Source: Pseudomonadota bacterium (GTDB lineage: Bacteria > Pseudomonadota > Gammaproteobacteria > Xanthomonadales > Xanthomonadaceae). Taken from it: a DNA stretch of 64,000 nucleotides. The translations under genes were made by a program, and so were the position numbers. The stretch lies in contig JAEWZE010000048.1 of NCBI GenBank assembly GCA_023395465.1, positions 12,744 to 76,743 on the forward strand, given 5' to 3'. The notes under the pieces are model-generated. The model was given only the letters and a program-made list of their open reading frames with translations. It was not told the DNA's origin and did no database searches. This document shows positions 6,190 through 62,778 of this stretch, in pieces. Each line of letters begins with the position of its first letter. The first letter of the stretch is position 1.

Positions 6190-6222
6190 CTAATTTTGGC
6201 GGTGGGGCCAGCCGCCTAGAGT
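6190..6222 (+). promoter_or_regulatory. Recurrent promoter-like element (box plus -10-like hexamer)
   Basis: Box CTAATTTTG at 6190-6198 and hexamer TAGAGT at 6217-6222, 29 nt before ATG 6251. Confidence 0.4.
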
Positions 6223-6250
6223 TGAGGCAACTCAACGATCAGGCCTCGCC

Positions 6251-6637
6251 ATGCCTTCCCACGCCTCTGCTTCAGCCTCCGCCACGACGCATGCTCTGTA
6301 CCAGATGATCGAGCGACACGCTCCGGCGATCCTCGAGCGTGGGAGCCCGGACCACCGGAAGGACCAGGGCTGCGAGCCGCCCGCCGGGCTGGTGACCTAC
6401 ACCCCGGACCTTGGCGAGCACACCTGCCGGATTCGCCTGTTCATCTCCGCCGCCGACATGCAGCAGCGGATGCGCGATCACGACGAGCGCGGCAGCGAGG
6501 TGGTCGACGTGCCCACCGGGCTGCGGCTCCGGATCCAGCGCGCCAACTGCGGGGCTGGTTGCCGCTGCGCCGCGCGGGTGACGGCGATCGAGCCCGCGAG
6601 CGCCACCGGCACCGAGCCGTTCGTGGCGGCCGCCTGA
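6251..6637 (+). CDS. Hypothetical protein
   Basis: A 128-aa ORF downstream of the promoter-like box. Confidence 0.5.
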   Translation: MPSHASASASATTHALYQMIERHAPAILERGSPDHRKDQGCEPPAGLVTYTPDLGEHTCRIRLFISAADMQQRMRDHDERGSEVVDVPTGLRLRIQRANCGAGCRCAARVTAIEPASATGTEPFVAAA

Positions 6638-6660
6638 GCGCGCCTGCATCCTGTCCTTGC

Positions 6661-7107
6661 ATGATGGAGCCTACTGTGCCCGCGACCGCACCAGACGCCC
6701 GCCCGATCGACGCATGGGGCGCGGCCTATTACCGTGCCGATGGATCCTACGCAGGCCGGACCGACCTGTTCCTGCACGAGGATCGCGCCCGATCGATGGT
6801 GCAACGTTGCACCGACTTCCAGACCGCGCGCGTTCGCCTGGTGCGCTTCGTGGAAGCGCCGACCTGGCACCCGGCCAGCGAGCCGCCGGCCCCTGCGCGC
6901 CCCGCCGAGGCCTGGGAGATGGAGACCGAGAGCGCGCCTGTGCTGGTGGTGGTCGAACATAGCGATGGCACGCGCCGCCAACTGGTGGCCACCTGCCGCG
7001 TGGACGTGGAGGAGGAGCACCGCATCACCTGGCGCTCGTGCTGCGCCGATGCCTGGACCCTCGAGCGCGTGGTGGCGTGGCGCGAGCTCGACTGGCCCAC
7101 GATGTAG
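6661..7107 (+). CDS. Hypothetical protein
   Basis: ATG 6661 (MMEPTV) lies within track ORF 6559-7107. Confidence 0.5.
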   Translation: MMEPTVPATAPDARPIDAWGAAYYRADGSYAGRTDLFLHEDRARSMVQRCTDFQTARVRLVRFVEAPTWHPASEPPAPARPAEAWEMETESAPVLVVVEHSDGTRRQLVATCRVDVEEEHRITWRSCCADAWTLERVVAWRELDWPTM

Positions 7108-7284
7108 GCGCGTGCCGGCTCAAGAATGAACGGACTCGCGCCGATGTATTGACGACAGGACGCCGTGCGCCTGACTTTACGCACGGGGACGACACTATTG
7201 CGATCGCGTGCTCGCACCAGGCCGGTCTCCGCCTTGGACGGGCCCGCGAAACGCCTACACCCATTCAGGGATGCAGGGGGACAC

Positions 7285-8151
7285 ATGCCGCACAGCCAAG
7301 AAGATCTGAACCGCCTTGCCCAGTACGGCAACAGCCAGCAGGATTCACGCGCCGCGAGTACCAACATGGGTGGGGTGCTGTCCGGGCTTCCGGAACCGAT
7401 CAAGGCCCACATCGAAACCCAGGCGCGTGATCGCCGATTGCAAGGGGAAGCCCATGCCCGCCGCATGGCAGCGATCCCGGCCTCCGTGCATCGTCAGGTA
7501 GATCGCGAGATCCGCGACGACATGTGGCGGTTCTTCCGGAATTTCGTTCTGGCTCCGGTCGCCCTGTTTATCGGCATCATCTGGCTCGGCAAGCTGGGCA
7601 CACCCGATTACAGCCATATCGACCCGCTCGCCATCAGCAAGATCGAGCCCGACCCTGCACTGCATGCTCCGATGAATCCACGAGTCCAGGAACTGTCGCG
7701 GCTTTCGGTGGTGGAGATGGTGCGCAATAGTGGCGATCTCAGGGCCCTCAAGCGCGGTGAGACGCCGTCGCAGGAGCAGCTCGACTACGGCCAGGCCCTC
7801 TGGCTGAGTCACATCGCGAACCCGAACGCTTCGTTCCAGGCGGATGATGGAGTGAGGACGTTCGCATTCAGCCTGGTGGAGGGATACCTGACCCACCGCG
7901 CGATGGAGTCGGGGAACGATCAATTCTTCATCGAGCTGGGGAACGATGCCTACAGGCTTCACCCTGGCGCCATGCGGTCGAGTCTCAGGTGGCAGAAGCT
8001 CTCGCTCAGTCATCCAGACGTGCCCGTGCTGCATGCGATGGCAGACTTTTCCGGAGACTCGATAGAGGTCGAGTACGCCTTCTTTCGCGGCCTCTACTAC
8101 ATCCTGTCCTTCGTGGGCTTGGACGATAAGGCACGCAACTTCTTCGGCTAG
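7285..8151 (+). CDS. Hypothetical membrane-anchored protein (one TM segment)
   Basis: AGGGGGA precedes ATG 7285. The hydrophobic segment is FFRNFVLAPVALFIGIIWLG. GC is lower than in the flanks. Confidence 0.55.
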   Translation: MPHSQEDLNRLAQYGNSQQDSRAASTNMGGVLSGLPEPIKAHIETQARDRRLQGEAHARRMAAIPASVHRQVDREIRDDMWRFFRNFVLAPVALFIGIIWLGKLGTPDYSHIDPLAISKIEPDPALHAPMNPRVQELSRLSVVEMVRNSGDLRALKRGETPSQEQLDYGQALWLSHIANPNASFQADDGVRTFAFSLVEGYLTHRAMESGNDQFFIELGNDAYRLHPGAMRSSLRWQKLSLSHPDVPVLHAMADFSGDSIEVEYAFFRGLYYILSFVGLDDKARNFFG

Positions 8152-8159
8152 GAGCCGCT

Positions 8160-10706: not shown

Positions 10707-10739
10707 CCTACTTTCGCAGCCGCCCGCGGCTGGTTCCAT
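10707..10739 (+). promoter_or_regulatory. Recurrent promoter-like element (relaxed box)
   Basis: Box CCTACTTTC at 10707-10715 and hexamer TTCCAT at 10734-10739, 25 nt before ATG 10764. Confidence 0.3.
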
Positions 10740-11033: not shown

Positions 11034-11036
11034 CCT

Positions 11037-11069
11037 GCATCTTTCGCCGGCCGCCCGGCCTGCTGTAGT
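11037..11069 (+). promoter_or_regulatory. Recurrent promoter-like element (relaxed box)
   Basis: Box GCATCTTTC at 11037-11045 and hexamer TGTAGT at 11064-11069. Confidence 0.3.
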
Positions 11070-11096
11070 AGGTCCATCTTCTCGATGGAGCCACCG

Positions 11097-11606
11097 ATGC
11101 CCAGCGCCAACGAAGCCGTTCCCTCGCGCGCCGCTGCGCCAAAGCGCTATGCCGCCGTCTCGCGGCGCCTACACACCGACGCGGTGGTCATGGAACGGCG
11201 ATACAACGCCATGCGGTCCTCGGAGCTCGGCAGCCGGGCATGGCAAGACGCGGGTATCGAGTTCCTGCGCGAGGGGCTCAAGCGCGGCTGCATGGACCAC
11301 CTCAACCTGCTGGGCGACATGCGCGGGCCACACAGCGCGCTGAGTGAGCGCGCCACGGACGAGCTGTTTGAGAATCGCGATCTGTCGGATGCCTTTATTG
11401 CGCGCCTGCGGATCGCCGCGGCGAGAGAGCCCGACCTGGACCGCGGCCTACGAAGCTGGTTCGGCGACCGCCTGTTCACCGGCCCGCTCTCCAATGCCCA
11501 CCACGCGCACCCCGACCACGACCCGACCCCTGCCCCCTCCGGTCGCAGTGCTTCCCCGGTGGCGCCGGCCAGCACCTTGCCTCAACTTTCGCTGGGCTTT
11601 GCCTAG
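11097..11606 (+). CDS. Hypothetical protein; tandem paralogue of 11663-12034
   Basis: ATG 11097 has GGAG 6 nt upstream (alternative ATG at 11085). The segment AGIEFLREGLKRGCMDHLN...SERATDELFENRDLSDAFIARLR aligns with the next gene. Confidence 0.55.
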   Translation: MPSANEAVPSRAAAPKRYAAVSRRLHTDAVVMERRYNAMRSSELGSRAWQDAGIEFLREGLKRGCMDHLNLLGDMRGPHSALSERATDELFENRDLSDAFIARLRIAAAREPDLDRGLRSWFGDRLFTGPLSNAHHAHPDHDPTPAPSGRSASPVAPASTLPQLSLGFA

Positions 11607-11614
11607 AGCAAGAT
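11582..11614 (+). promoter_or_regulatory. Recurrent promoter-like element
   Basis: Box TCAACTTTC at 11582-11590 and hexamer CAAGAT at 11609-11614, 49 nt before ATG 11663. Confidence 0.4.
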
Positions 11615-11662: not shown

Positions 11663-12034
11663 ATGTACTACTGGACTGGATCACTCGAAGATGCCCGCGC
11701 GATGCACGCGCTCGACAAAGACTTGCGCGAGGCTTCGCGCCGCAGCTTCGGCGGGCCGAAGTGGATGGCTGCCGGCGTGGCATTCATTCGCGAGGGCTTG
11801 AGGCGCGACTGCCTGGCCGATCTCAACGGCCTGGCCGATAGGCTGCAATCGCGCACCCAGCTGAGCGAGCGCTCGATGGACGAACTGTTCGAGTCGGGCG
11901 ACACGACTGACGCCTTCGTCGCCCACCTGCGGCTCGAAGCGGAGCGCGACCCCGTGTTCAAGGCCCAGCTGCTCAAGGAGTTCGGTGAGGGCCTGTTCAC
12001 ACGCCCCTTGACCCAGCAGGACATGTTCGCGTGA
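11663..12034 (+). CDS. Hypothetical protein; tandem paralogue of 11097-11606
   Basis: The segment AGVAFIREGLRRDCLADLN...SERSMDELFESGDTTDAFVAHLR aligns with the previous gene. Confidence 0.55.
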   Translation: MYYWTGSLEDARAMHALDKDLREASRRSFGGPKWMAAGVAFIREGLRRDCLADLNGLADRLQSRTQLSERSMDELFESGDTTDAFVAHLRLEAERDPVFKAQLLKEFGEGLFTRPLTQQDMFA

Positions 12035-12441
12035 TGCGCCTGGAAGCGGAGCATGCGGCCACCGGGCGCGCGGCCGCGCTCGAATGGCTGTGGGACCGCG
12101 TCATCGAACATGTGGCCGCCATGCGCCTGTCCACCGGGGAGCGCTACGAGGCCTGCACCGACGATGTCATGCTGCGCGACGCCAGCGCCGCCGACTGCCT
12201 CGGCTGGCTGGACGACTGCCAGGCGCGGCTTGGGTGCGACGTCACCGCAGCCCGCGCCGAGATGATGGCCTACCTCGCCGTGCGCGACGGGATTCCTGGC
12301 GAGCCGGCGGTGGGCGCCGCGATCGCGCCCGCGCTCCTGCACGCGATGGGCCGCCTCCACCGCTTCCACCCGGTCCTAGTCGGTCTGCGCGTCGCAGCCG
12401 AAGGCAACAAGCCGCCCACCACGGACAGCGCATCACGCTGA
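12031..12441 (+). CDS. Hypothetical protein
   Basis: A GTG/ATG at 12031/12034 overlaps the upstream stop (GTGATG). Confidence 0.45.
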   Translation: MMRLEAEHAATGRAAALEWLWDRVIEHVAAMRLSTGERYEACTDDVMLRDASAADCLGWLDDCQARLGCDVTAARAEMMAYLAVRDGIPGEPAVGAAIAPALLHAMGRLHRFHPVLVGLRVAAEGNKPPTTDSASR

Positions 12442-12465
12442 TCCGGCCCCGGCGCGCGGGCCTGG

Positions 12466-12498
12466 CCAACTTTCTCGCCCTGTCTCGCGCCCTAGCCT
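12466..12498 (+). promoter_or_regulatory. Recurrent promoter-like element
   Basis: Box CCAACTTTC at 12466-12474 and hexamer TAGCCT at 12493-12498, 45 nt before ATG 12543. Confidence 0.4.
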
Positions 12499-12542
12499 GT
12501 TCCTAGAGCCGCAATCCGCGGCCTCACCACGAGGAGACCTTC

Positions 12543-12848
12543 ATGGACAAGCGAGCCGAGACCGGCTACTGGGTGATGCGCGTGCCGGTGATCTCCACCG
12601 CACACATCACGCCCGCCGTCGGCCAGGAGCTGCACGAGCTGCTGCCCGGCGAGGAGTTCTACGACACGCCCTGCATGGGCGGCGCGCACGGCTCGATGCT
12701 CTACTGCGCCGACACCGACAACCTGCCCGAGGACGCGCCCCAGTGCCTGCGCGATGTCCTGGCCTGGGCGCGCGGCGAAGGCTTCGAGTGGGTGCGACTC
12801 GATGCCGACGGCGACAGCATCGACGGCCTGCCGGAGTTCGACTGGTAA
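12543..12848 (+). CDS. Hypothetical acidic protein (conserved mobile-element type)
   Basis: GAGGAG lies 7 nt upstream. The N-terminus MRVPVISTAHITP... resembles small island-borne proteins I recall without being able to name the family. Confidence 0.55.
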   Translation: MDKRAETGYWVMRVPVISTAHITPAVGQELHELLPGEEFYDTPCMGGAHGSMLYCADTDNLPEDAPQCLRDVLAWARGEGFEWVRLDADGDSIDGLPEFDW

Positions 12849-13186
12849 TGGCCGCCCTGACCCCCTATCTGGTCGAGTACCGCGAGGAGCAAACGCAGGC
12901 CCTTGGCTTCCCATGCTGGGCCGAGGACGCCGGCCACGCGGTCGAGCAGTGCCAGGATGCCTACCCCGCCGCGGTGGTGGTGTGCGCGCTCCCGCAGACC
13001 GCCTGCCCCGGTCCGGATGGCAGCCCGGGCTTCTGGATCATTCGCAGCGCGGAGTGTCCGGACGACCTCTGGTCCAACGAGGACGGCTGGACCAGCGGCC
13101 CTGATTTCACCGTGTTCGACAGTAGCGACACCGGCCACGGTCTGCCGATCGGTGGTGAGTGGGTTCGGTTGCGCATCGCCGGGTAG
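12848..13186 (+). CDS. Hypothetical protein
   Basis: ATG 12848 overlaps the upstream TAA (TAATG). Confidence 0.5.
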   Translation: MAALTPYLVEYREEQTQALGFPCWAEDAGHAVEQCQDAYPAAVVVCALPQTACPGPDGSPGFWIIRSAECPDDLWSNEDGWTSGPDFTVFDSSDTGHGLPIGGEWVRLRIAG

Positions 13187-13438
13187 TCCGCAGTGGCCCC
13201 CCGGCCGCTAACATTGGCTGGCCCACCCATGCGCATGCCCTAATGGCCAACCCGGGCTGCCATTGATTCTGCTGCCTGGTTTGCCAGCCCATGCGTGGTC
13301 GCGGCTTGCAAGAGGGCAGGCTCGAACCCGGGCCGCCACCGAATTACGAGTTGCAGTGGATGTTGGTGTAGCTTGATGAGGCAAAGCACGCGGGCGAGCG
13401 TAACGATTAATCCGATCCACGAACACTAGGGGGAATAG

Positions 13439-13819
13439 ATGGCAAAGTGCCGGATGTGCGGCGACGTGGCAGGCTTCGCCATGGAACTGTGTGACTCGTG
13501 TCAGCGTTCCCAGGCGCACGCAGAATCCGAGCGAGCGGCGCGCGCAGTCAGAACGGAGCTAGCCGATGCCAAGTTGGAAGAAGGCGAGACCGCAGCGCGG
13601 ATCGGCAACGTGATCATTTGGCTGAGCTTGTTCGGAAGTCTGATATGCGTGTTCGGATTTGGCAGAGTTTCCGGTGCATACGGCGAGAAAGCGGTGTGGA
13701 ATGGCGTCTTGGTGACCATGTTCATCGCCGCCGGTCTTAACGGTGCCTTTTTCGGCTACCTGTTGTCCAAGGTGGGCAGCATCCTCATTCGGCTCCAGAA
13801 GCTCACCGACTCGAACTGA
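13439..13819 (+). CDS. Membrane protein with an N-terminal CxxC...CxxC zinc ribbon and two TM segments
   Basis: GGGGGA precedes the ATG. The ribbon is CRMCGDVAGFAMELCDSC, followed by two hydrophobic helices. The gene and its upstream spacer are low in GC. Confidence 0.55.
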   Translation: MAKCRMCGDVAGFAMELCDSCQRSQAHAESERAARAVRTELADAKLEEGETAARIGNVIIWLSLFGSLICVFGFGRVSGAYGEKAVWNGVLVTMFIAAGLNGAFFGYLLSKVGSILIRLQKLTDSN

Positions 13820-13916
13820 TCGTCCGAACAAACCGCCAAACCGGCGGTTCTGATTTGCTTCGACGCCCGGCATGCCCGGGCGTTCGCATGTTTGGCTGCT
13901 GCCAACGCACGACCGC

Positions 13917-13949
13917 CCAACTTTCCGGCGCCGGTCAATCTCGCATATT
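13917..13949 (+). promoter_or_regulatory. Recurrent promoter-like element
   Basis: Box CCAACTTTC at 13917-13925 and hexamer CATATT at 13944-13949, 32 nt before ATG 13981. Confidence 0.4.
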
Positions 13950-13980
13950 GGAGAGACTCCAACCAGACGAGCCAAGACCG

Positions 13981-14268
13981 ATGAACACGACCCCCGCCAG
14001 CCAGACCGATCAGCAGCGGCGCGTTGCGGCCTGCCTGCGCGCCTGCGAGGGCATGACCACCGAGCAGCTGGAGGGAATGGTCACCGAGTCCGATGACGGC
14101 GTTCTGGCGCTGGCCAACGAGGTATGCGAGGCGATCTGGGAACGGCATGGCATCGACCTGCACGGCGATGACGCAATCGAGGGCTCGGACGCGGTGGATA
14201 CGCTCTCCGAGCTCTACATCCAGCTTGAGAACGTCGTCCGCTACGCGCGCACCGTCCGCCTGCCTTGA
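13981..14268 (+). CDS. Hypothetical acidic protein
   Basis: ATG 13981 lies within track ORF 13855-14268. Confidence 0.5.
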   Translation: MNTTPASQTDQQRRVAACLRACEGMTTEQLEGMVTESDDGVLALANEVCEAIWERHGIDLHGDDAIEGSDAVDTLSELYIQLENVVRYARTVRLP

Positions 14269-16115: not shown

Positions 16116-16161
16116 GCGTCCACCTCGGACGGTCCGCCCGTCCAGCAAGAGCAGCTCCACA

Positions 16162-16184
16162 GGCCCGCCCCGCGCGGGCCTTTT
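16162..16184 (+). terminator. Rho-independent terminator candidate
   Basis: Stem GGCCCGC/GCGGGCC (7 bp), loop CCCGC, then TTTT. Confidence 0.5.
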
Positions 16185-16201: not shown

Positions 16202-16234
16202 GCAAGTTTCCCGCCGCTGGCGCCTTGCCACCAT
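16202..16234 (+). promoter_or_regulatory. Recurrent promoter-like element
   Basis: Box GCAAGTTTC at 16202-16210 and hexamer CACCAT at 16229-16234. Confidence 0.4.
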
Positions 16235-16296
16235 GTCCCCATCGCGATACGCGACACCGACCGGGCGGAACCCGGCGTAAGCACAGGAGAATGGAC

Positions 16297-16647
16297 ATGG
16301 GTTGGAGCTTCGGATGGCACGACCGGCACGAGATGATCGCGCACATGCTAAATCCCATCTGCCGCACGACCGTCATCGACCACAGTGTCCACGACGACCA
16401 TGTCTGGACGCTCCACCAGGTCCGCCCGGGGTTCGGCACCGAGGCCCACCCGGAAGGCAGCTGCTTCATCCGCATGCACCTGCTGGAGATGGAGGACGGC
16501 GAATGGGGCATGAAGACCGTCTCCGAGGCGGAAGGTCCATACCTGTTTGACTGCCCACTCTCAATCCTCGACCGGAGCGACGATCAATCCGGGAACGCCG
16601 TGCGCTGGCGCGAGCGTTGTCGCCGACAGCTGGGGGTGGCGGCATGA
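16297..16647 (+). CDS. MGW-start family protein; paralogue of 27171-27722
   Basis: AGGAGA precedes ATG 16297 (alternative ATG at 16291). The segments MGWSFGWHDRHEMIAHML...VIDHSV...RWRERCR are shared with 27171. Confidence 0.55.
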   Translation: MGWSFGWHDRHEMIAHMLNPICRTTVIDHSVHDDHVWTLHQVRPGFGTEAHPEGSCFIRMHLLEMEDGEWGMKTVSEAEGPYLFDCPLSILDRSDDQSGNAVRWRERCRRQLGVAA

Positions 16648-18032: not shown

Positions 18033-18065
18033 CTAAGTTTCACGTTGTCTGCGCTCCCAGATCAT
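18033..18065 (+). promoter_or_regulatory. Recurrent promoter-like element
   Basis: Box CTAAGTTTC at 18033-18041 and hexamer GATCAT at 18060-18065. The hexamer overlaps ATG 18064, which favours ATG 18091 as the start. Confidence 0.4.
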
Positions 18066-21186: not shown

Positions 21187-21219
21187 TCAACTTTCCAGAC
21201 GGCGACGCGAGAGCATCCT
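21187..21219 (+). promoter_or_regulatory. Recurrent promoter-like element
   Basis: Box TCAACTTTC at 21187-21195 and hexamer CATCCT at 21214-21219, 28 nt before ATG 21247. Confidence 0.4.
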
Positions 21220-23349: not shown

Positions 23350-23382
23350 CGAACTTTCGCCGGCCCGCTGGTCCTGTGAACT
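23350..23382 (+). promoter_or_regulatory. Recurrent promoter-like element
   Basis: Box CGAACTTTC at 23350-23358 and hexamer TGAACT at 23377-23382. The element overlaps the candidate GTG 23376 start. Confidence 0.35.
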
Positions 23383-24052: not shown

Positions 24053-24931
24053 TTACATGCAGTCGATCGGGTGGAAGCAATTGGACGCAGCGGCCTTCTC
24101 CGCTGCCGCTTCCTCGTCGGTCTTGACCGGCACAGCGGTTGCCAATTTCTTACCTTCAGCGTCCACCAGTTCGATGCGAACCATGCTCGCATTGATTTGC
24201 GGGGCGTTGGAACTGGTGTCGGACTTGCCGATGTCATCCACGTGGAAGTAGACCTTGACGGCACTCTTGCGCGCCGCCAGCGCTGCAGATGCCGCACGCG
24301 CCTCTTGTTCATCCGGCACGTAATACTGGCTCTGGGGCCCCTTCCACTTTTCGCCATTGGTGAACTGCACATAGCAGTAGGCCTGCCTTCCGCCCCTGCC
24401 CTCGTGCTGGCTGAAGACGCGGCCCGAGCCGCCCCAGATAATCCTGGAGCTGTCGAAGAAGCCCTTGTGCTCGAAGTTGTATTCCCGATAGGGGTCGTCA
24501 CCAACGTCCGTGGTGTACGAATACAGGCGCTTGCCTTCGTACGGAGCCACACGAGAGGCGATCTCCGGCTCGAGCGATGCCATGTAGTCCTTCTTCGCAA
24601 ATGCGTCCGTCGTCCTGTCGTACTCGCGTCCGCCGAGCATCTGGGCGTACTGCGTGCGCACCCGATCCTTTGCTTCGTCGTCGCCCATGTTCCAGGAGAT
24701 ACCCAGGCAATCGGTGGCATCGCCCAGCACGGCGAACTCGCTGGCCGGCGTATCCGGATCGATCTTCGGCTGCGTGGCCGGCTTCTTGGCGCTGCTTGCG
24801 TCCGCCGCGGATCCGACGGCACTGGGGCTGTCGGTTTCGCCGTCTGCTGCAGCAGATCCGGCGGGGTCATTGTTCGAGCATGCGGCAAGCAGAAGCGCCG
24901 CCGCGAGCGGCGCAAGTGGTGCGAATTTCAT
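24053..24931 (-). CDS. Lipoprotein (low-GC cargo)
   Basis: ATG at 24931 with AAGGGGGG upstream. Signal plus lipobox MKFAPLAPLAAALLLAAC. GC is lower than the surroundings. Confidence 0.65.
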   Translation of the reverse strand: MKFAPLAPLAAALLLAACSNNDPAGSAAADGETDSPSAVGSAADASSAKKPATQPKIDPDTPASEFAVLGDATDCLGISWNMGDDEAKDRVRTQYAQMLGGREYDRTTDAFAKKDYMASLEPEIASRVAPYEGKRLYSYTTDVGDDPYREYNFEHKGFFDSSRIIWGGSGRVFSQHEGRGGRQAYCYVQFTNGEKWKGPQSQYYVPDEQEARAASAALAARKSAVKVYFHVDDIGKSDTSSNAPQINASMVRIELVDAEGKKLATAVPVKTDEEAAAEKAAASNCFHPIDCM

Positions 24932-25140
24932 TGGATCCCCCCTTTGGGATGCTTGGTCCGAAAACGGCGGCTTGGCCGTTGTTGCGTTATAGCCGCCGCT
25001 GAGTGAATCGATCAAGAACCTGACGTGCATGGCGCGGGGCACTAGCCGTTCGCTATCCCCCGCTGTTTCGGTGCTGGTTGCGATGCTCCCGGCGATGCAC
25101 CGGCGGCTACGCTGCTCCCGACGAAACCGCAACGTCCGGC

Positions 25141-25329: not shown

Positions 25330-25362
25330 GCAACTTTCCACTCGCGCCGCGCCCCCTAGCCT
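25330..25362 (+). promoter_or_regulatory. Recurrent promoter-like element
   Basis: Box GCAACTTTC at 25330-25338 and hexamer TAGCCT at 25357-25362, 29 nt before ATG 25391. Confidence 0.4.
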
Positions 25363-25772: not shown

Positions 25773-25805
25773 CTAAGTTTCGTGCGGATGCGCGCATGGC
25801 TTTCT
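25773..25805 (+). promoter_or_regulatory. Recurrent promoter-like element
   Basis: Box CTAAGTTTC at 25773-25781 and a weak hexamer CTTTCT at 25800-25805. Confidence 0.35.
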
Positions 25806-26974: not shown

Positions 26975-27007
26975 CTAATTTCTGGCCACTGGCGCGCGTG
27001 GTTACAT
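26975..27007 (+). promoter_or_regulatory. Recurrent promoter-like element (relaxed box)
   Basis: Box CTAATTTC at 26975-26982 and hexamer TTACAT at 27002-27007. Confidence 0.35.
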
Positions 27008-29139: not shown

Positions 29140-29174
29140 GCAACTTTCGCCGCGGTGGCGATGCGGTAGGACAT
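29140..29174 (+). promoter_or_regulatory. Recurrent promoter-like element (box present, -10 off register by 2 nt)
   Basis: Box GCAACTTTC at 29140-29148. This is the only copy without T at the fixed position; TAGGACAT ends at 29174. Confidence 0.3.
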
Positions 29175-30245: not shown

Positions 30246-30278
30246 GCAAGTTTCGCCTCTGTATCGACCGGCTAACTT
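30246..30278 (+). promoter_or_regulatory. Recurrent promoter-like element
   Basis: Box GCAAGTTTC at 30246-30254 and hexamer TAACTT at 30273-30278. Confidence 0.4.
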
Positions 30279-31134: not shown

Positions 31135-31167
31135 CTAACTTGGGCTGGTGCTTCGCTGGTGCACCCT
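31135..31167 (+). promoter_or_regulatory. Recurrent promoter-like element (relaxed box)
   Basis: Box CTAACTTGG at 31135-31143 and hexamer CACCCT at 31162-31167, 30 nt before ATG 31197. Confidence 0.3.
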
Positions 31168-46268: not shown

Positions 46269-46301
46269 GTAAGTTTCAGCGCGGTTGCGCCGTGGTGTTC
46301 T
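46269..46301 (+). promoter_or_regulatory. Recurrent promoter-like element
   Basis: Box GTAAGTTTC at 46269-46277 and hexamer TGTTCT at 46296-46301, 35 nt before ATG 46336. Confidence 0.4.
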
Positions 46302-50038: not shown

Positions 50039-50041
50039 GGC

Positions 50042-50284: not shown

Positions 50285-50363
50285 GGCCGGATGGTACGCC
50301 GCCACGGCCATCGATCCCACCGTACCGGTCGCCCCGCCGCACCCGTGTTCAGCCCCTCTCCAT

Positions 50364-50396
50364 GCAATTTTCTGGCGCCTCGCGATCCCGCATCGT
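50364..50396 (+). promoter_or_regulatory. Recurrent promoter-like element
   Basis: Box GCAATTTTC at 50364-50372 and hexamer CATCGT at 50391-50396, 43 nt before ATG 50439. Confidence 0.4.
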
Positions 50397-52182: not shown

Positions 52183-52283
52183 CGCGCCACCGCGCTCCTC
52201 GTTGCAAGGCCCCCCGACCGTAGCAGGCGGACGGTCAACGTTCGGGCATGGCGCGGGTAAAGCGTAGGCACCGCCACGCGCGG

Positions 52284-52721
52284 TCAGCTTTCGTCCCACA
52301 CCTCCACGTACAACCACTCATCGCGGTCGCAGTCCACGAAGGCATGGGCGTCGAGAAACGTCTCGCCGCGCCACTTCTCGGTCGCGACATCGCCGCCACC
52401 GATAAGCCAGCGATCGCGCGCGTCCGGCGGCTTTGGGATAAGCCGCGGAAGCAGGTCGATCGCCCTGCCGGTGTAGTGGAAGGGATAGCCGTTGCCGCCG
52501 AGGAACAGGATCGACCCGGCCTGGGCGAGATCATCGAGCCAACGCTTTCCAGGCGTGGAGGCCTGCCATTCGGCCACCAGCCCGCCGCGCGGCGCATCGA
52601 CCGGAGCAGGCTGCCTCCCACCGTCGAGCTGGCGGTGCACCGCCATGAACCATCCGAGCATTAGCGTCCCCGTGCGCTGGCGAATCCACATCGGACAGCG
52701 TAGCCGCAGCGGGCGACTCAT
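52284..52721 (-). CDS. Hypothetical protein (start uncertain)
   Basis: The distal two-thirds have a plausible composition (…GSILFLGGNGYPFHYTGRAIDLL…DEWLYVEVWDES). Candidate starts are at 52721, 52691 and 52661. Confidence 0.4.
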   Translation of the reverse strand: MSRPLRLRCPMWIRQRTGTLMLGWFMAVHRQLDGGRQPAPVDAPRGGLVAEWQASTPGKRWLDDLAQAGSILFLGGNGYPFHYTGRAIDLLPRLIPKPPDARDRWLIGGGDVATEKWRGETFLDAHAFVDCDRDEWLYVEVWDES

Positions 52722-52804: not shown

Positions 52805-52837
52805 CTAAGTTTCAACGATCTCGCGGGGTGTTGAGAT
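52805..52837 (+). promoter_or_regulatory. Recurrent promoter-like element
   Basis: Box CTAAGTTTC at 52805-52813 and hexamer TGAGAT at 52832-52837, 29 nt before ATG 52866. Confidence 0.4.
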
Positions 52838-53988: not shown

Positions 53989-54021
53989 GCAATTTTCCAG
54001 GCCGCCCCGCCCTAGTTGAAT
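53989..54021 (+). promoter_or_regulatory. Recurrent promoter-like element
   Basis: Box GCAATTTTC at 53989-53997 and hexamer TTGAAT at 54016-54021. The hexamer contains the track TTG 54016, which favours ATG 54052 as the start. Confidence 0.4.
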
Positions 54022-54051: not shown

Positions 54052-56040
54052 ATGATCGACTCCGCCGCCACCATCGCCCTCATCGACGCGCCGCCCGCCG
54101 ACGCGCACGCCGCAGCCGCCAACGCAGCCGCGATCACCGCCGAGCAGGCGACCAATGCAGACACGCAGGAGATCGAAGTCGCTTCGATCAGGGTCGATCC
54201 GGCGTTCAACCCGCGCAAGCGCTTCGATGACGCGGACATTGCGGAGTTCGCAGAGCGCATCCACACCAGCGGGTGGCTGTCGCCCCCGCTCGTGCGCCCT
54301 GACCCCTACGGCGAAGGCTTCCTGCTAGTCGCCGGTGAGCGCCGCCTGCGCGCGATCAAGCACCTGGGCTGGACGACCGTGCAGGTCACGGTGAAGTCGA
54401 TGAACGACACCGAGCATCGCAAGCTGGCTCTGGTGGAAAACCTCGACCGGCGCGAATTGAACGTCGCTGAAGAAGCGCTCGCCGCGCGGGATCATCTGGC
54501 TGCCTACGAGGGTGACCACGACGCAGCCGCCAGGGCGCTGGGGTGGCCGGTTGCCCGCCTGCGCCACCGGCTCAAGCTGCTGCACGCCTCGCCTGCTGTC
54601 ATCGACGCGCTGCTCAATGGGCGCATCCAGCTGGGCCACGCCGAGTTGCTGGCGACCCTGCCTGAGTCCAACCAGGACAAGGCGCTGCCGCGCGTCATCA
54701 GCGACGGCCTGACCGTGGCTGCGCTTCGCGAACAGATCAATGGCTTCGCCACCCCGCTGTCGAGCGCCATCTTCGACACCTCGGCCTGCGCCAACTGCCT
54801 GTTCAATACCTCCTGCCAGGGCACGCTGTTCGAGGCGCGCGTAGCCGAGGGCAACTGCACGAACAAGCCGTGCTTCACCCAAAAGACCGAGGAAGCGTTG
54901 GAGGCCAAGCGCGAGTCCATGAAGGCCGACTTCGGCGTGGTGGTGCTGGTGTCCGAGCGTGCGCCCGAGCAGTCGGTGCCGCTGGTGAAGTCCGGTCCTC
55001 GCGGCGTCGGCGCGGCGCAGTTCGATGCCTGCCGCACCTGCGAGTTCCGTGGTGCGGCGATCCACGACGCTCCCGGCCCGCGCTTGGGCACAGTCGAATC
55101 TCCGCTGTGCTTCAACACGTCCTGCCACGGCAACATGGTCAAGGCGTACCAGCAGCAGTTGGCAGAGGCCGAAGAATCCCAGGCGGCAGCTGATGCGCCC
55201 GAAGGCGCAGCCGCCCCCACGTCCACCACCAAGCCCGCCGCGTCGCAGGCTGCCGCCAAGGGGAAGGTCAAGACGGCCAAGGCGACGAAGGCCACTCCCA
55301 AGGCGCAGTCGGTCCTGCGTTCGGTGGCCGAGCAGTACGGGGCCATCGTGGCTCGCGCCGGTACTGAGGCCATCGGTCGCTCGCCGGTTCCGGCGCTCGC
55401 GCTTGCGGTGTACGCACTGTCCAAGCTGGGCGGGGTGGAGGCCAAGATCAGCGCTGGCGATTTGCGCGAGGGACTCGGCCTGCCCGACACGGTGGGCAAC
55501 TTCACCAACGCCACCGTCACCCTGGCCGCACTCGCGGCATGCGACGAGGCCGCGCTGAACAAGGCGATCCAGGGGATCAGTGCGCGCCTGCTGACGCACG
55601 AAGTCAACGACCGCCCCTTTGGTGGTCAGCTACAGCGTCGGGCGCTCCTGCCGAACCTGATCGCAGCCACGGGCGTCAACGTCGCTGACCATGTGGTCGT
55701 GGATACCGGGTTCCTCAACGCGCACACCAAGCCCGCCATCGAAGCGGTCCTGGAGGAATCCGGCTTCGCTGCGTGGATGGCTTCGCGCGAGGACGGCCCG
55801 AAGCAGTACCGCGCGATGCTGGCGGGGAAAAAGGAGGACTTGATCGCCGCCGTGCTGTCGAGCGGGTTCTCCTTCGCGGGATACGTCCCCAGCGGCCTTG
55901 ATTCCCAGGTCGCAGCGTGGCGGAAGGCCGAAGGCATGCCGCATGTGCCGCTGGCAACGCCCACCACGGACGAAGCCGCGCAGGGTGAGGCGCAGACCGA
56001 CGACTCGCAGGCCGGGCAGGAGCAAGCAGAAGCCGCCTGA
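54052..56040 (+). CDS. PRTRC-system ParB-family protein
   Basis: The ParB N-terminal domain is IEVASIRVDPAFNPRKRF...LLVAGERRLRAIKHLGW. It is the first gene of the cassette. An alternative TTG start is at 54016. Confidence 0.8.
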   Translation: MIDSAATIALIDAPPADAHAAAANAAAITAEQATNADTQEIEVASIRVDPAFNPRKRFDDADIAEFAERIHTSGWLSPPLVRPDPYGEGFLLVAGERRLRAIKHLGWTTVQVTVKSMNDTEHRKLALVENLDRRELNVAEEALAARDHLAAYEGDHDAAARALGWPVARLRHRLKLLHASPAVIDALLNGRIQLGHAELLATLPESNQDKALPRVISDGLTVAALREQINGFATPLSSAIFDTSACANCLFNTSCQGTLFEARVAEGNCTNKPCFTQKTEEALEAKRESMKADFGVVVLVSERAPEQSVPLVKSGPRGVGAAQFDACRTCEFRGAAIHDAPGPRLGTVESPLCFNTSCHGNMVKAYQQQLAEAEESQAAADAPEGAAAPTSTTKPAASQAAAKGKVKTAKATKATPKAQSVLRSVAEQYGAIVARAGTEAIGRSPVPALALAVYALSKLGGVEAKISAGDLREGLGLPDTVGNFTNATVTLAALAACDEAALNKAIQGISARLLTHEVNDRPFGGQLQRRALLPNLIAATGVNVADHVVVDTGFLNAHTKPAIEAVLEESGFAAWMASREDGPKQYRAMLAGKKEDLIAAVLSSGFSFAGYVPSGLDSQVAAWRKAEGMPHVPLATPTTDEAAQGEAQTDDSQAGQEQAEAA

Positions 56041-56055: not shown

Positions 56056-56088
56056 GCAAGTTTGAGGCGCGCCCCTGCCCCGCATCAT
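56056..56088 (+). promoter_or_regulatory. Recurrent promoter-like element
   Basis: Box GCAAGTTTG at 56056-56064 and hexamer CATCAT at 56083-56088, 36 nt before ATG 56124. Confidence 0.4.
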
Positions 56089-57078: not shown

Positions 57079-58334
57079 CGTTCCTGCGCCTGCCCCGCAT
57101 CGCCGCCGCCAACGCCCAGGCCACGCAGAGCGCCGTGGCCGCTGGACTCAACGGCGTCACGCCTGAGATTCGCCAGCACGCGCTGCGCAAGGTGCGCGCC
57201 GCGATCCGCAACGGCCGGGTGCGCCCGGCCAAGGTCGAGCGGGCCTTGGAGCGTGGGGATGCGGGGCTGGCATCGCTGTTTCCGGTCGGGCAGATGCCCT
57301 CGACCCCGGCGATCCCGGCGTCCGCCCTGTCCACTGTGGGTGGCAGCGAGCGCGTGGCCAAGGCGCTGGATGATTGCAGCTGGGTGATCGAGCTGGCGAT
57401 GCGGCGCGGAGTGGACACCAGCGAGCTGGCCGAAGCCTTGTCCGGCGGCACGCTCCCCACCAACGCTGCGCACCTGCTGGTGGCGACCTGGAACCGCCTG
57501 CTCGACAGCTACCGCCCCGACTGGCTGCCTGCCGAGGTCACGGGCGACCGAGCCAAGCTGATGGCGCTGCCTGAGCCGCTGCGCCGCGAACACGCCGACC
57601 CAAGGGCGCTGTTCACCATCGAGCCGACCTCCCTCTGCCGCATGTTCGTCACCAGCGACACGCCCGAGTTCAACCTGGTGCTGCACGCCCTGCGCAAACT
57701 GGAAGAAGCCACCCACTACCCGCTCGCCGCTTTCGACCCTGACCGGGGCCGTGAGTGCTACATGGAATACTCAATGGGCGGCAGCATGCTTGACGACCTG
57801 GCGCAGATCGCGATCTGGCCCGATGGCGCGGACGAGCCGACCTTCGACACCGAAGCGGTGGCGAACCTCCTTGACGAGTTCGGGCACGAGCCTGAGTCGG
57901 CCGAGTATTTCATCGAAGCGGCGACGCACGAGCTTGTACGCGAGCGCAAGCTCAAGGCAGCGCCGAAGGTGGACCGTGACCCGGAGTTGCGCCACGCCTT
58001 GAAGGCGTCCCAGTCAAGCAACGCCAAGCTGGCACGCATCATCCTTGCGCTCGCACGCAGGATCAAAGCGCTGCCCGCGCCACCCAACGCATTCCAGCAC
58101 GACTTCTGCGGCTTCGGACTTCCCGTGCATCTGCTCTCGACATGGGACTGTGATTCCTTCCAGGATGAGCTGTCGAACGCAATCGACACCGAGTGCGGCG
58201 ACGAGGCACCCTCGATCACGTTCATGGCGGCCACGCAGTCGTTGTCCAAGATCGACGCGGCGCTGCGACGCCTGATCCCTGAAATGCTGGTGAGCGACTA
58301 CGTGTATGGCTTGATGCTGGCCGACCACGAATAA
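57075..58334 (+). CDS. PRTRC-system protein F (assignment by position and size)
   Basis: GTG overlaps the upstream stop (GTGA). The protein is 419 aa. Confidence 0.5.
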   Translation: MTFLRLPRIAAANAQATQSAVAAGLNGVTPEIRQHALRKVRAAIRNGRVRPAKVERALERGDAGLASLFPVGQMPSTPAIPASALSTVGGSERVAKALDDCSWVIELAMRRGVDTSELAEALSGGTLPTNAAHLLVATWNRLLDSYRPDWLPAEVTGDRAKLMALPEPLRREHADPRALFTIEPTSLCRMFVTSDTPEFNLVLHALRKLEEATHYPLAAFDPDRGRECYMEYSMGGSMLDDLAQIAIWPDGADEPTFDTEAVANLLDEFGHEPESAEYFIEAATHELVRERKLKAAPKVDRDPELRHALKASQSSNAKLARIILALARRIKALPAPPNAFQHDFCGFGLPVHLLSTWDCDSFQDELSNAIDTECGDEAPSITFMAATQSLSKIDAALRRLIPEMLVSDYVYGLMLADHE

Positions 58335-58363
58335 GTTTCCAGCGCTTGCGCGCTTGCTGAGAT
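58331..58363 (+). promoter_or_regulatory. Recurrent promoter-like element (internal to the PRTRC cassette)
   Basis: Box ATAAGTTTC at 58331-58339 and hexamer TGAGAT at 58358-58363, 31 nt before ATG 58394. Confidence 0.4.
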
Positions 58364-60634: not shown

Positions 60635-61333
60635 ATGACGAAGCGCCTGCGTCCGACACGGACACCCACTCGACACCTGCTCGCCGCCCTGCTGCTCTGC
60701 ATGGCTGTCCCTCCCGCTGCCGCCGAAGTCACCGGACGCGCCAGCGTCGTGGACGGCGACACGCTGGAAGTTCGGGGCACGCGCATGCGCCTGCATGGCA
60801 TAGACGCACCAGAGTCGGACCAGTCCTGCCGCCGGACCGATGGCACGGCCTGGCGCTGCGGCCAGCAGTCCGCGCTGGCGCTCGACGCGATGATCGAGGC
60901 TAGGCCGGTGCGCTGCGTGCCCCGGTCCACGGATCGGTACGGCCGTACCGTGGCCGAGTGCTGGGTGGGTGGTCAGTCCATCAACCGCTGGATGGTGGCC
61001 CACGGCTGGGCGACCGCCTATCGCGAGTATTCCCAGCAGTTCGTCACAGACGAGCAGTCCGCCCGCGCGGCACGCCGGAACATCTGGTCGGGCACGTTCG
61101 AGCCGCCCGCGACGTACCGTCGAGCACGGACGACGGCAGCGCGGCGCCCTCCCGCCCAGCCGCCAAGCCCGGCATGCGTCATCAAGGGGAACATCAGCTC
61201 GTCCGGCCGCATCTACCACTCCCCCGGGCAGCGTGACTACGACAGGACCGTCATCGACGTGGCAACCGGTGAGCGCTGGTTCTGCTCACCCGTCGAGGCC
61301 CAGGCGGCCGGTTGGCGACCCGCACAGCGATAG
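60635..61333 (+). CDS. Secreted thermonuclease (SNase) family nuclease with a C-terminal Cys-containing domain
   Basis: The signal peptide ends AAA-E. The SNase core is VVDGDTLEV...RLHGIDAPE...RYGRTVAEC. The C-terminus is CVIKGNISSSGRIYHSPGQRDYDRT...FCSPVEAQAAGWRPA. Confidence 0.75.
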   Translation: MTKRLRPTRTPTRHLLAALLLCMAVPPAAAEVTGRASVVDGDTLEVRGTRMRLHGIDAPESDQSCRRTDGTAWRCGQQSALALDAMIEARPVRCVPRSTDRYGRTVAECWVGGQSINRWMVAHGWATAYREYSQQFVTDEQSARAARRNIWSGTFEPPATYRRARTTAARRPPAQPPSPACVIKGNISSSGRIYHSPGQRDYDRTVIDVATGERWFCSPVEAQAAGWRPAQR

Positions 61334-61425
61334 GCAGCCGGAATCCCGGGCTGGACCGATCCCCGCCCCACTACCGCGCACATAGAGCCGGCAATACACT
61401 CCCATCGGGGAAAGGGGAGATCATC

Positions 61426-62352
61426 GTGGGAACGATCTACAAGCTGCTGGGCATCGTCGCGCTGCTGGCGGGGGCATGGCTGCTCCATTCTTTCTACGTC
61501 GACTATCGGACCAACGCTCGCCATTACCTGCTTGCGTGGGACAGCCCCGCCGGCGTCCATGAGCGGTTTCTCGAGGCGCTCGCCAAGCGCGGTGTGCGAC
61601 CGGAGAGCACCGAAGTCCGGGCTAACCCCCGCTACTACACGGGCTTCGTCAAGCACCGTAGTGATCTGGCGAATGGCTGCAGACCGCGGGCGGGAGCTTG
61701 GTCGCTGGATAGCCCATCCCAATGGGTCTGTCGCCGCCCGTGGACCGAGCGCACCTACGTTCGGATCGTGCACCCTGCGGTGAGCTACGAAGAGGCGTTG
61801 GACAAAGCCCGGCAAGCTCATCCCCGCTCCACCTACGGCATGGTCCCATCGCAAGCATCAGCAGGCGGCTCGCCATCGCCGTCGCAGCGTGCCGCCAGTC
61901 TTTGGCTGGGCGTCATCGCCCCAGCGGCCATGATCCTCACTTCGCTCGCGCTACTCGCCTCGATTCTGGCGTCGTGGCTGCGGGCCCGCAACGAGTTCCG
62001 CCCGTCGCCGCAGCCCAGCCCGGTCTTTGCCACACAGGGCACGATGCGCCCGATGACGCTACCCGATCGGCTGAAAGACGCCTTCGGTGACGATCTGCCA
62101 GTGACTGTCGGCGAGGCGACGAAGGATTGCCCGCTGGTGGTCACGGAGCCGGTGGATTACGTCTCCGTCGAGTATGCGGTCGCGAAATACCTGATGGCGG
62201 GCAAGGAGTGGAAGAAGCTGCGCCAGAATGTGTTGCGGCTCAACGGCAGGATCGTCGACGAACTGGTCTTCGCGGTTCGCGACGGCCCGTACAGCGAGTA
62301 TGCAGAGCGTTCGTTCTACTTCGACGTCACCACCGGCTTCATGCGGCGCTGA
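61426..62352 (+). CDS. Hypothetical two-TM membrane protein
   Basis: GTG 61426 has AGGGGAG 6 nt upstream. Confidence 0.5.
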   Translation: MGTIYKLLGIVALLAGAWLLHSFYVDYRTNARHYLLAWDSPAGVHERFLEALAKRGVRPESTEVRANPRYYTGFVKHRSDLANGCRPRAGAWSLDSPSQWVCRRPWTERTYVRIVHPAVSYEEALDKARQAHPRSTYGMVPSQASAGGSPSPSQRAASLWLGVIAPAAMILTSLALLASILASWLRARNEFRPSPQPSPVFATQGTMRPMTLPDRLKDAFGDDLPVTVGEATKDCPLVVTEPVDYVSVEYAVAKYLMAGKEWKKLRQNVLRLNGRIVDELVFAVRDGPYSEYAERSFYFDVTTGFMRR

Positions 62353-62446
62353 TAAAGGCGCCTCAGTGGCGGCGCTTCGGCCCGCGTTCCACCTCGGACT
62401 CCACGGCTTCCCGCAGCGGGTCGGGCAACTGGGCGCGGGCCGCGAT

Positions 62447-62692
62447 TCAGCCCGGCGGGTCGCTGCAGGGCTCGTCGTCGCCGGGCACCAGCCCGTGCTC
62501 GCGCAGGATGCACTGGAGCTGCGACCAGACGTGGCCGTGGTCCTCAGTCGATGCCGCCTCGAGGATCCCGTCGGCGATGCCAGCGAACTCGTCGATCAGG
62601 TGCGGGCTGTCGGGTTCCTCGGCTATTCGCCGGCGCATGTGCTCGGCCAGGTCGGCAACCTTGGCGTCCAACTCGGATCGTGTGAGCTTCAT
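62447..62692 (-). CDS. Hypothetical small acidic protein
   Basis: ATG at 62692 has AAGGAGG 6 nt upstream, on the minus strand. Confidence 0.5.
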   Translation of the reverse strand: MKLTRSELDAKVADLAEHMRRRIAEEPDSPHLIDEFAGIADGILEAASTEDHGHVWSQLQCILREHGLVPGDDEPCSDPPG

Positions 62693-62745
62693 CGCGGCCT
62701 CCTTGGGCCAGGATCGTGCGCGAGCCTTTGTGAAGCCGTCGCATG

Positions 62746-62778
62746 CCAACTTTGGAAAGTGATCGGCCGGGGCATCGT
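62746..62778 (+). promoter_or_regulatory. Recurrent promoter-like element
   Basis: Box CCAACTTTG at 62746-62754 and hexamer CATCGT at 62773-62778, 33 nt before ATG 62811. Confidence 0.4.

Follow-up and report, generated by a model that had tools for sequence, protein, structure and literature searches.

Short boxes phase-locked to −10-like hexamers mark a putative promoter class across a PRTRC-bearing conjugative element of Lysobacterales

The window considered here is a stretch of 64,000 nucleotides from a member of the Xanthomonadaceae (contig JAEWZE010000048.1 of assembly GCA_023395465.1, positions 12,744 to 76,743). It belongs to a MOBH-type conjugative megaplasmid or integrative and conjugative element (ICE) of Lysobacterales that encodes MobI and TraF/H/G and contains both a type IVb pilus cluster and a PRTRC cassette, and an identical copy of the ParB protein of the window is encoded on a 185.8-kb contig. 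Based on a self-trained codon model, the window (67.4% G+C) contains about 90 genes, 83 on the plus strand and 7 on the minus strand. Nearly all genes of the first 30 kb are without a family assignment, the exceptions being a BamE-like gene, a DUF5983 gene, a TnpB insertion, a GmrSD_N gene and a gene for an XRE-type helix-turn-helix (HTH) protein. The remainder comprises the type IVb pilus cluster and genes for an S8 autotransporter, SRAP, DUF4262, an ATP-dependent ligase, a 662-amino acid PRTRC ParB and the PRTRC ubiquitin-like cassette. In the gaps ahead of these plus-strand genes recurs a short box, yAAnTTT(C/G), at a fixed distance from a hexamer resembling a −10 element. Judged by their sequence features, these sites very likely constitute one promoter class.

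The initial annotation had listed 24 such sites, and all of them were found at the positions and with the sequences given there. Its count of 19 strict copies requires correction, as the consensus [GC][CT]AA[CGT]TTT[CG] matches 15; the looser core AANTTT[CG] has 19 matches on the plus strand and 1 on the minus strand (5864, inside a gene). A T is positioned exactly 30 nt past the first A in 18 of the 19 plus-strand core copies (binomial P = 8e-14 at a T frequency of 0.161), which agrees with the proposal that a phase-locked T is very unlikely to arise by chance. At site 29140, noted earlier as the off-register exception, the T is indeed placed 2 nt further downstream. The full pattern AANTTT[CG]-N23-T is present 18 times in the window by comparison to 1.58 ± 1.08 times in 100 dinucleotide shuffles (maximum, 4). 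As claimed, all 18 copies are on the plus strand, and the 7 minus-strand genes are without a copy. Box density is 1.9 per kb of non-coding sequence and 0.054 per kb of coding sequence, a difference of about 35-fold. The scan of coding against intergenic sequence and of both strands that the initial annotation had called for thus yields strong enrichment in plus-strand intergenic DNA, and the similar density within genes or on the minus strand that it had named as contrary evidence was not seen. Each site is located in a gap ahead of a plus-strand gene, with 15-82 nt between the end of the −10 hexamer and the best start codon; three copies touch a called coding sequence, either the last 25 nt of an upstream gene or a doubtful minus-strand open reading frame.

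In a weight-matrix scan, training sites scored 18-24 and the top chance score on the minus strand was 12.5 (Table 1). Among the five relaxed sites listed earlier, four are marginal, with 11037 slightly above this chance maximum and 31135, 10707 and 26975 below it, and 28697 (score <8) is not supported. Site 31135 lies at the head of a gene array running into the type IVb pilus cluster. The same scan recovered two candidates that were absent from the first list, at 1419 and 24921. The gaps lacking a box were searched for another common motif, and no shared word was found. The start codons that had been favored on the basis of the box geometry (18091, 54052, 30306 and 11097) fit the predicted +1 and are preceded by ribosome-binding sites of the GGAG/GGGAA type. 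By the same logic, the starts after 25773 and 46269 would move to 25832 and 46336.

Table 1. Box-containing sites of the window, from the start of the box to the end of the −10 hexamer.
Site	Position	Strand	Box, spacer and hexamer	Score	Remarks
Promoter	6190..6222	+	CTAATTTTG-N18-TAGAGT	20.7	predicted +1 ~6229; ahead of gene 6305-6637
Promoter	11582..11614	+	TCAACTTTC-N18-CAAGAT	20.6	overlaps final 25 nt of upstream gene; ahead of 11663-12034
Promoter	12466..12498	+	CCAACTTTC-N18-TAGCCT	22.0	ahead of DUF5983 gene 12543-12848
Promoter	13917..13949	+	CCAACTTTC-N18-CATATT	23.7	ahead of 13981-14268
Promoter	16202..16234	+	GCAAGTTTC-N18-CACCAT	19.0	terminator-like hairpin 16161-16181 immediately 5'
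Promoter	18033..18065	+	CTAAGTTTC-N18-GATCAT	21.4	implied start codon 18091, not 18064
Promoter	21187..21219	+	TCAACTTTC-N18-CATCCT	18.5	ahead of 21247-21489
Promoter	23350..23382	+	CGAACTTTC-N18-TGAACT	18.8	ahead of GmrSD_N/DUF262-like gene
Promoter	25330..25362	+	GCAACTTTC-N18-TAGCCT	20.0	ahead of 25391-25762
Promoter	25773..25805	+	CTAAGTTTC-N18-CTTTCT	21.5	implied start 25832
Promoter, off-register −10	29140..29174	+	GCAACTTTC-N20-GGACAT	12.9	ahead of 85-amino acid gene and XRE-HTH gene
Promoter	30246..30278	+	GCAAGTTTC-N18-TAACTT	21.8	start 30306 favored
S8 autotransporter promoter	46269..46301	+	GTAAGTTTC-N18-TGTTCT	22.7	start 46336; orthologous sites in L005, L006, L088, L089
DUF4262 gene promoter	50364..50396	+	GCAATTTTC-N18-CATCGT	22.7	orthologous sites in L005, L089
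ATP-dependent DNA ligase promoter	52805..52837	+	CTAAGTTTC-N18-TGAGAT	19.4	orthologous sites in L005, L088, L089
PRTRC ParB promoter	53989..54021	+	GCAATTTTC-N18-TTGAAT	18.2	start 54052; five-relative alignment
PRTRC E-C-F promoter	56056..56088	+	GCAAGTTTG-N18-CATCAT	19.2	orthologous sites in all relatives
PRTRC B-A-ThiF promoter	58331..58363	+	ATAAGTTTC-N18-TGAGAT	22.0	orthologous sites in all relatives
Promoter	62746..62778	+	CCAACTTTG-N18-CATCGT	21.6	ahead of 62811-63308
Candidate variant promoter	1419..1451	+	CCATCTTTC-N18-CATCGT	16.9	top non-training score; non-coding; ahead of 1478-2275
Weak candidate	24921..24953	+	GCGAATTTC-N18-GATGCT	13.9	near chance level; ahead of 25141-25323
Relaxed site	11037..11069	+	GCATCTTTC-N18-TGTAGT	13.4	AT variant as at 1419; start 11097 favored
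Relaxed site	31135..31167	+	CTAACTTGG-N18-CACCCT	11.3	TTG form as in sister lineage
Marginal relaxed site	10707..10739	+	CCTACTTTC-N18-TTCCAT	9.8	minus-strand chance maximum 12.5
Marginal relaxed site	26975..27007	+	CTAATTTCT-N18-TTACAT	9.8	

A box-anchored alignment, numbered from the start of the 9-mer (column 1), gave informative columns at 2 (C/T), 3-4 (AA), 6-8 (TTT), 9 (C, less often G), 28 (T/C), 29 (A), 33 (T) and 34-35 (GG); the 40 columns 5' of the box are without information (≤0.17 bit each). Among 50 sites pooled across the present element and four related ones, columns 25-26 (−15/−14) are T in 27/50 and G in 34/50 sites and thus, together with columns 28, 29 and 33, spell the extended −10 element TGnTAnnnT. 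Position 1 of the −10 hexamer is T or C in 18 of the 19 window sites, position 2 is A in 13 of 19 (25/50 pooled), and the final T is found in 18 of these 19 sites, which had been chosen without reference to it. A GG discriminator follows the hexamer. Further downstream, column 39 is a pyrimidine in 25/32 sites, and column 40, exactly 7 nt past the −10 T, is a purine in 26/32 (A in 19/32); this step is the predicted −1/+1. The promoter reading of the initial annotation is well supported by the extended −10, the −10 hexamer, the discriminator and the +1 step, and by the conservation of the motif in four relatives while spacers diverge. The box sites show all sequence features of promoters and are the only recognizable promoters in the region. 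A scan of 10-30 kb for canonical sigma-70 promoters found 1 by comparison to 1.7 expected, and terminators were not enriched.

The sites are strand-specific and intergenic, and some of their spacers are able to form GC hairpins. These properties would also suit a nucleic-acid structure acting as a signal instead of a conventional promoter, for example, a leader RNA, a single-stranded DNA (Frpo-like) promoter, or an anti-termination or processing site. We consider this highly improbable: the spacers, with 76% G+C, fold at −4.8 kcal/mol by comparison to −4.1 ± 0.5 kcal/mol in shuffled controls and thus show no excess, an Rfam search gave no family match, and the conserved positions correspond one for one to contact points of RNA polymerase. 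A Frpo-type promoter, in which a long imperfect hairpin restores the −35 and −10 within single-stranded DNA, was rejected separately, since the same strand contains no complementary box and spacer folding is not above that of shuffles.

As the initial annotation had suggested, we searched homologous elements for the box and found it together with the phased T in four further elements, without exception on the strand of the gene. These are L005 (7 sites; ParB 66% identical to that of the window), L006/L008 from Alterluteimonas muca MHLX1A (6 sites; ParB 61%), L088 (7 sites vs 1.3 expected; ParB 59%) and L089 (11 sites vs 0.63 expected, 11/11 reading AACTTT; ParB 58%). A contig overlapping the downstream end of the window and reaching 7.4 kb beyond it (L007) has one further site, ahead of a helicase gene that is followed by ParA. 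The conserved sites precede orthologous genes (autotransporter, DUF4262, ligase, ParB, PRTRC-E and PRTRC-B) as well as unrelated small genes. When the ParB-upstream regions of five relatives are aligned, conservation is limited to the box, the last T and the start region, and the spacers diverge. In PLSDB there is no close relative, the best matches being 49% identical for ParB and 45% for ThiF, both from plasmids without the box. PRTRC ParB genes of 37-49% identity are found there on 150-260-kb plasmids of Xanthomonas, Rhodanobacter and Ahniella that encode a MobH relaxase, TraD and F-type Tra genes. A search of genome contigs with a single protein query gave no match; with an alignment as the query it gave 80 loci, with the box in Alterluteimonas muca only. 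The AAnTTTS box was not found in L090 (ParB 53%), L091 (51%), three plasmids and 79 further genomic loci (≤45%), and a literature search on the words of the box retrieved nothing relevant.

L090, which represents a sister lineage, has a form of its own, (C/G)TAACTTG(T/C), in many cases with GG after it and with an unchanged distance to the T that ends a hexamer. The pattern TAACTTG-N24-T has 7 exact copies in L090, all on the plus strand (for example, at 876, 4139, 7139, 7625, 9931, 14247 and 20747), and at most 1 in any other of 91 loci. A Rhodanobacter plasmid has CTTGC(C/G) boxes with equal spacing ahead of its PRTRC genes, so that CTTGC, TAACTTGY and AAnTTTS read as a graded series. The third hexamer position has changed from G to T in concert in all promoters of a lineage. 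This is not expected of independent drift in housekeeping promoters and would point to an element-specific reader.

With +1 placed at column 40, the box extends from −38 to −31, and TTTSnn, separated from the −10 by a 16-bp spacer, is in register with a −35 hexamer. In general terms, the sites have what is expected of sigma-70-family promoters, namely a −10 hexamer, a spacing of 16-18 bp and a predicted pyrimidine-purine start 6-8 nt after the −10. The housekeeping −35, which is TTGACA-like with TTG best kept, is lacking, as a third-position G is present in 0 of the 19 core sites. The earlier statement that the box is unlike TTGACA is thus correct in that TTT replaces TTG, but it needs to be qualified, as TTTSnn is positioned exactly in the −35 register and relatives have TTG or CTTGC. 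The register, the TTG of the sister lineage and the CTTGC of distant plasmids together argue that the box is a derived −35 region.

A simple alternative would be that the housekeeping sigma-70 reads these promoters, with TTTSnn as a weak, lineage-specific −35 assisted by the extended −10 across a 16-bp spacer, and with AA as a minor upstream preference. The exact register and the graded series in relatives conform to this, and the −10, extended −10, discriminator and +1 step are all of the sigma-70 type. Drift, however, would result in a mixture of TTG and TTT, but T is present in essentially all promoters of five elements and G in all of those of the sister; moreover, AA at −37/−36 is invariant despite being outside the hexamer, and the spacing is much more rigid than the usual 16-18 nt. 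Plain sigma-70 recognition consequently ranks as an unlikely explanation, third among the candidate readers.

Second in rank, and still rather unlikely, is that the box is the −35 element of an alternative factor of the sigma-70 family, encoded by the 186-kb element or its host, whose region 4 would read AAnTTTS and whose regions 2/3 would read the extended −10. The box is short, asymmetric, of the size of a monomer site and exactly at −35, its spacing to the hexamer is identical in 18 of 19 sites, information is very high at −35 and low at −10, and the concerted TTT/TTG difference between sister lineages would suit co-evolving sigma-promoter pairs. On the other hand, we found no Sigma70 domain in the window, in 8.5 kb upstream and 7.4 kb downstream of it, or within ±10 kb of ParB in five relatives. 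Promoters of extracytoplasmic function (ECF) sigma factors have the form GGAACTT-N16-TCnAA or CGTC, and AACTTT is similar to their −35; AACTTT(C) is a good match to the −35 core, above all in L089. Among the 19 sites, however, AA is followed by C in 8, by G in 8 and by T in 3, so that a conserved C is lacking. There is also no CGT-type −10 at 16-17 nt: columns 22-26 hold ≤0.56 bit, and the conserved −10, TGnTAnnnT instead of CGT, is 4-5 nt further downstream than in ECF promoters. In addition, ECF sigma factors are without region 3, which reads the extended −10. Sigma-28 (FliA; TAAAGTTT-N11-GCCGATAA) was tried and rejected, because the box, although similar to TAA(A)GTTT, is not followed by GCCGATAA, and the hexamer is located 20 nt past TTT, not 14.

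Middle promoters of phage T4 combine a MotA box with a sigma-70 −10. As in the present sites, a short asymmetric box replaces the −35, the −10 is of the form TAnnnT and the spacing is rigid. However, the MotA box (TTTGCTTTA) is centered at −30 and 11-13 bp from the −10, whereas the box described here is centered at about −34 and 18 bp from the −10. No homologue of MotA or AsiA was found.

Among the proteins of the window, Pfam and NCBIfam identify just one regulator, the XRE-type HTH protein at 29484-29927, which is loosely similar to an HTH protein in L088; the 85-amino acid neighbor of its gene has no PDB or family match. Another candidate is encoded just outside the window. A short-read contig of the same element, L092, reaches 8.5 kb upstream, so that position 1 of the window corresponds to L092 8524. 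It carries MobI and an S49 peptidase on the plus strand and, divergent from these, a ParM-like gene, a 178-amino acid gene, a 419-amino acid gene, TraF, TraH and TraG. The 419-amino acid protein, P0063 (L092 3829-5088, minus strand), has its gene 3.4 kb upstream of the window, with the ParM-like gene on one side and traF-traH-traG on the other, a neighborhood of mobI and traFHG like that of setCD and acaCD in SXT/IncC-type elements. P0063 matches Pfam FlhD weakly (E = 0.0027, residues 110-171), and FlhD is its sole PDB match (E = 0.13 as a single sequence); with a family profile the value is 0.04, by comparison to 0.029 for the designed helical protein 7kl9. An exhaustive profile search retrieved full-length relatives of about 420 amino acids, stand-alone proteins of about 200-250 amino acids matching residues 215-403, and proteins of 100-210 amino acids matching residues 9-197. 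P0073, a stand-alone relative of the C-terminal half, reaches 31 bits with Pfam FlhC (cut-off 27), and P0098, a stand-alone relative of the central part, reaches 35 bits with Pfam FlhD, above threshold. Because stand-alone halves from other organisms pass the FlhC and FlhD thresholds, P0063 can be regarded as a single-chain FlhD-FlhC-like protein. Its C-terminal half has a conserved CxxC-N22-CxxC zinc site. Full-length homologues of P0063 are rare, with two in a collection of 5.8 billion proteins and about eight in a representative library, and tblastn against PLSDB gave no match for either P0063 or the stand-alone FlhC-like P0073. The suggestion of an element-encoded activator or an alternative sigma factor in the initial annotation is thus plausible; a sigma factor was not found, a gene for an FlhD-FlhC-like protein is present, and its connection to the box is one that we infer.

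Known FlhDC-like regulators of mobile elements provide a comparison. SetCD and AcaCD are master activators of class II that act at oriented boxes at or against the poor −35 of 10-17 promoters per element (PMC4344509, PMC4207636). The SetCD system of SXT/R391 (Poulin-Laprade et al. 2015, PMC4344509) resembles the present one in being of the MOBH type, in having mobI and traFHG beside the gene for an FlhDC-like activator, and in about ten or more promoters sharing one oriented box at or against a −35 without TTGACA. L094, a distant element with a fusion 33% identical to P0063, has a clean box, GTAACTTTC-N18-CAATCT, ahead of its mobI-like gene; little or none of the box-rich side is covered by L094 and L093, the contigs with homologues of the activator. 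AcaCD of IncA/C plasmids has 17 intergenic sites and induces more than half of the plasmid genes, many of them of unknown function (Carraro et al. 2014, PMC4207636). Its subunits are weak matches to Pfam FlhC/FlhD, as P0063 is to FlhD, and its boxes are oriented with the downstream gene in a class II geometry. BisDC of ICEclc, an activator analogous to FlhDC, acts on about 9-11 promoters sharing a motif across the ICE (PMC9286271, PMC12409273). The BisDC system includes a ParB-like protein, and a large ParB-family gene is among those preceded by the box here; the ICEclc motif, however, is a weak palindrome of 15-27 nt located well upstream (in PinR, by 152 bp relative to the mapped start) and not a −35 box.

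Several observations weigh against P0063 as the reader of the box. The box is just 7-8 bp long, asymmetric and situated on the −35 hexamer itself, whereas the SetCD box comprises 19-20 bp, mostly upstream of −36 (as in the s003 promoter, GATTTGTCACCTTTCTGCCC), and the AcaCD box about 28 bp with the dyad TGCCC-AAAWA-GGGCA (GCCC-N5-GGGC), for which there is no counterpart here. Dyad symmetry around the box is marginal (4.9 vs 4.5 ± 0.19). SetCD and AcaCD have boxes at traF and mobI, but in the present element traF is without a box and mobI has only a degenerate, off-register one, most tra genes lying outside the sequence seen. Unlike the tra genes of the SetCD regulon, the genes concerned are for the most part small and of unknown function or encode the ligase, ParB and PRTRC proteins. 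P0063 itself is a single 419-amino acid fusion in D-C order without BLAST-detectable similarity to plasmid-borne relatives. An AlphaFold model from 3 sequences (predicted local distance difference test score, 38) is too poor for use, and about 120 kb of the element beyond the sequence examined could encode a sigma factor. In terms of an FlhDC-type regulon, an activator gene and an oriented box at no fewer than 19 promoters are thus present, and a long box or dyad upstream of −36 was not found. We consider P0063 the best candidate reader, ahead of the two sigma-based explanations, but its assignment is tentative and somewhat short of an even chance.

Global repressor regulons are common in plasmids, for example, KorA/KorB of IncP-1 and ArdK of IncW. 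The box might accordingly be an operator over the −35 for a repressor of the entire element, so that genes would be expressed in a burst once the element has entered a new cell. One site common to many promoters throughout the element would suit such a role, as would genes that are co-oriented beside mobI and hence probably beside the origin of transfer (oriT). However, the site is short, asymmetric and single-copy, with no repeat or clear dyad, and a phase-lock to the −10 at a precision of 1 bp is unnecessary for a repressor but expected for contact with RNA polymerase. We thus regard a repressor operator as improbable.

Our favored explanation is a dedicated promoter class that would drive about 19-25 co-oriented operons of the element. 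RNA polymerase would use a weak extended −10 of the sigma-70 type, TGnTAnnnT, with the T at −7 nearly invariant. The −35 position is taken by the near-invariant, asymmetric yAAnTTT(C/G) at a distance to the −10 that is fixed to the base pair, and an element-encoded specificity factor would read this box, rendering the promoters switchable as a set. Such a factor is suggested because TTT replaces the housekeeping TTG and because the sister lineage has TAACTTGY at all equivalent sites. By analogy with SetCD and AcaCD, P0063 may be a class II-type activator that binds at a poor −35 element or directly next to it. That some element-specific factor reads the box is reasonably probable; the explanation as a whole, including P0063 as the best candidate, seems to us about equally likely to be right or wrong. 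The idea that most of these operons belong to one regulon, put forward in the initial annotation, is supported at the level of the shared cis-element, and beyond that level a common regulon is what we infer. The box probably acts as one common switch for numerous genes without a known function. A more specific and rather doubtful possibility is that a monomeric factor of the element, either the FlhD-FlhC fusion or another protein, reads the 7-bp box in place of sigma region 4 and has switched its specificity between sister lineages. In that case, AAnTTTS and TAACTTGY would define mutually orthogonal, plasmid-private regulons, and recognition would differ from that of the long dyad boxes of SetCD and AcaCD and be nearer in logic to sigma appropriation by phage T4.

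A regulon extending across a mobile element is of a kind known from SXT/R391, IncA/C and ICEclc; new here are the short −35 box, the fused activator and the lineage-specific switch of the box. If the favored explanation is correct, a single cis-element would explain how most genes of an uncharacterized region of more than 60 kb are expressed, in a family of elements that occurs as conjugative megaplasmids and ICEs of environmental Lysobacterales. The genes concerned include the PRTRC ubiquitin-like cassette, the large zinc-ribbon ParB, the DNA ligase and the autotransporter protease, as well as dozens of small genes that may serve establishment or anti-defense. Expressing one factor and reading one box would then provide a handle for switching on these genes jointly, together with a rule for the correction of start codons. 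The TTT/TTG pair of boxes would be a natural system for studying DNA recognition and element privacy of FlhDC-like activators or another factor. The motif is also a marker of this element lineage in metagenomes.

Within the co-oriented array, the minus-strand genes 24053-24931, 42856-43479, 49127-50311 and 51808-52661, the SRAP gene among them, are free of boxes and interrupt the array; these few genes appear to be outside the regulon. A TnpB/IS605-family gene (19347-20630; OrfB_IS605 and Cas12f1-like TNB domains) is located within the array of co-oriented small genes and is preceded by a gap of 393 nt in which there is no box.

In the alignment, the PRTRC ParB (54052-56040) shows eight invariant cysteines. 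They form two CxxC...CxxxxC pairs, one of C246/249/269/274 and the other of C327/330/353/358, in the region that separates the ParB HTH from the C-terminal domain. This arrangement suggests two zinc-ribbon-like modules, which are uncommon among partition ParB proteins. A search of the window for parS-like palindromes or iterons identified nothing recurrent. In the gene-free stretch 2276-2944, positions 2799-2870 contain about 8 copies of a 9-nt tandem repeat, CCTGGCGC(A/C), which could be a collagen-like Pro-Gly-Ala coding repeat in an uncalled gene, or iterons.

Upstream of the window, at least 8 words like GTGGTCACCACGTGG occupy L092 6775-7177 (1.3-1.7 kb from the window start), in the interval that separates the ParM-like gene from mobI. 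Their core word GTGGTCACCAC is also present at 1400-1560 of L093, an element with an activator only 41% identical to P0063. Repeats of this type probably serve as the centromere of the ParM system or belong to oriT. L093 additionally encodes a tyrosine integrase and a toxin-antitoxin pair of the ParE/ribbon-helix-helix type at 12420-14153, 6 kb past traG, and thus at least some family members are integrative (ICEs) and not plasmids.

Finally, small genes of the window occur as paralogous pairs, either in tandem or dispersed: 11085-11606 and 11663-12034, 16291-16647 and 27171-27722, and 63350-63634 and 63631-63939. The members of the second of these pairs have in common an N-terminal MGW..GW domain with a faint match to DUF6927.

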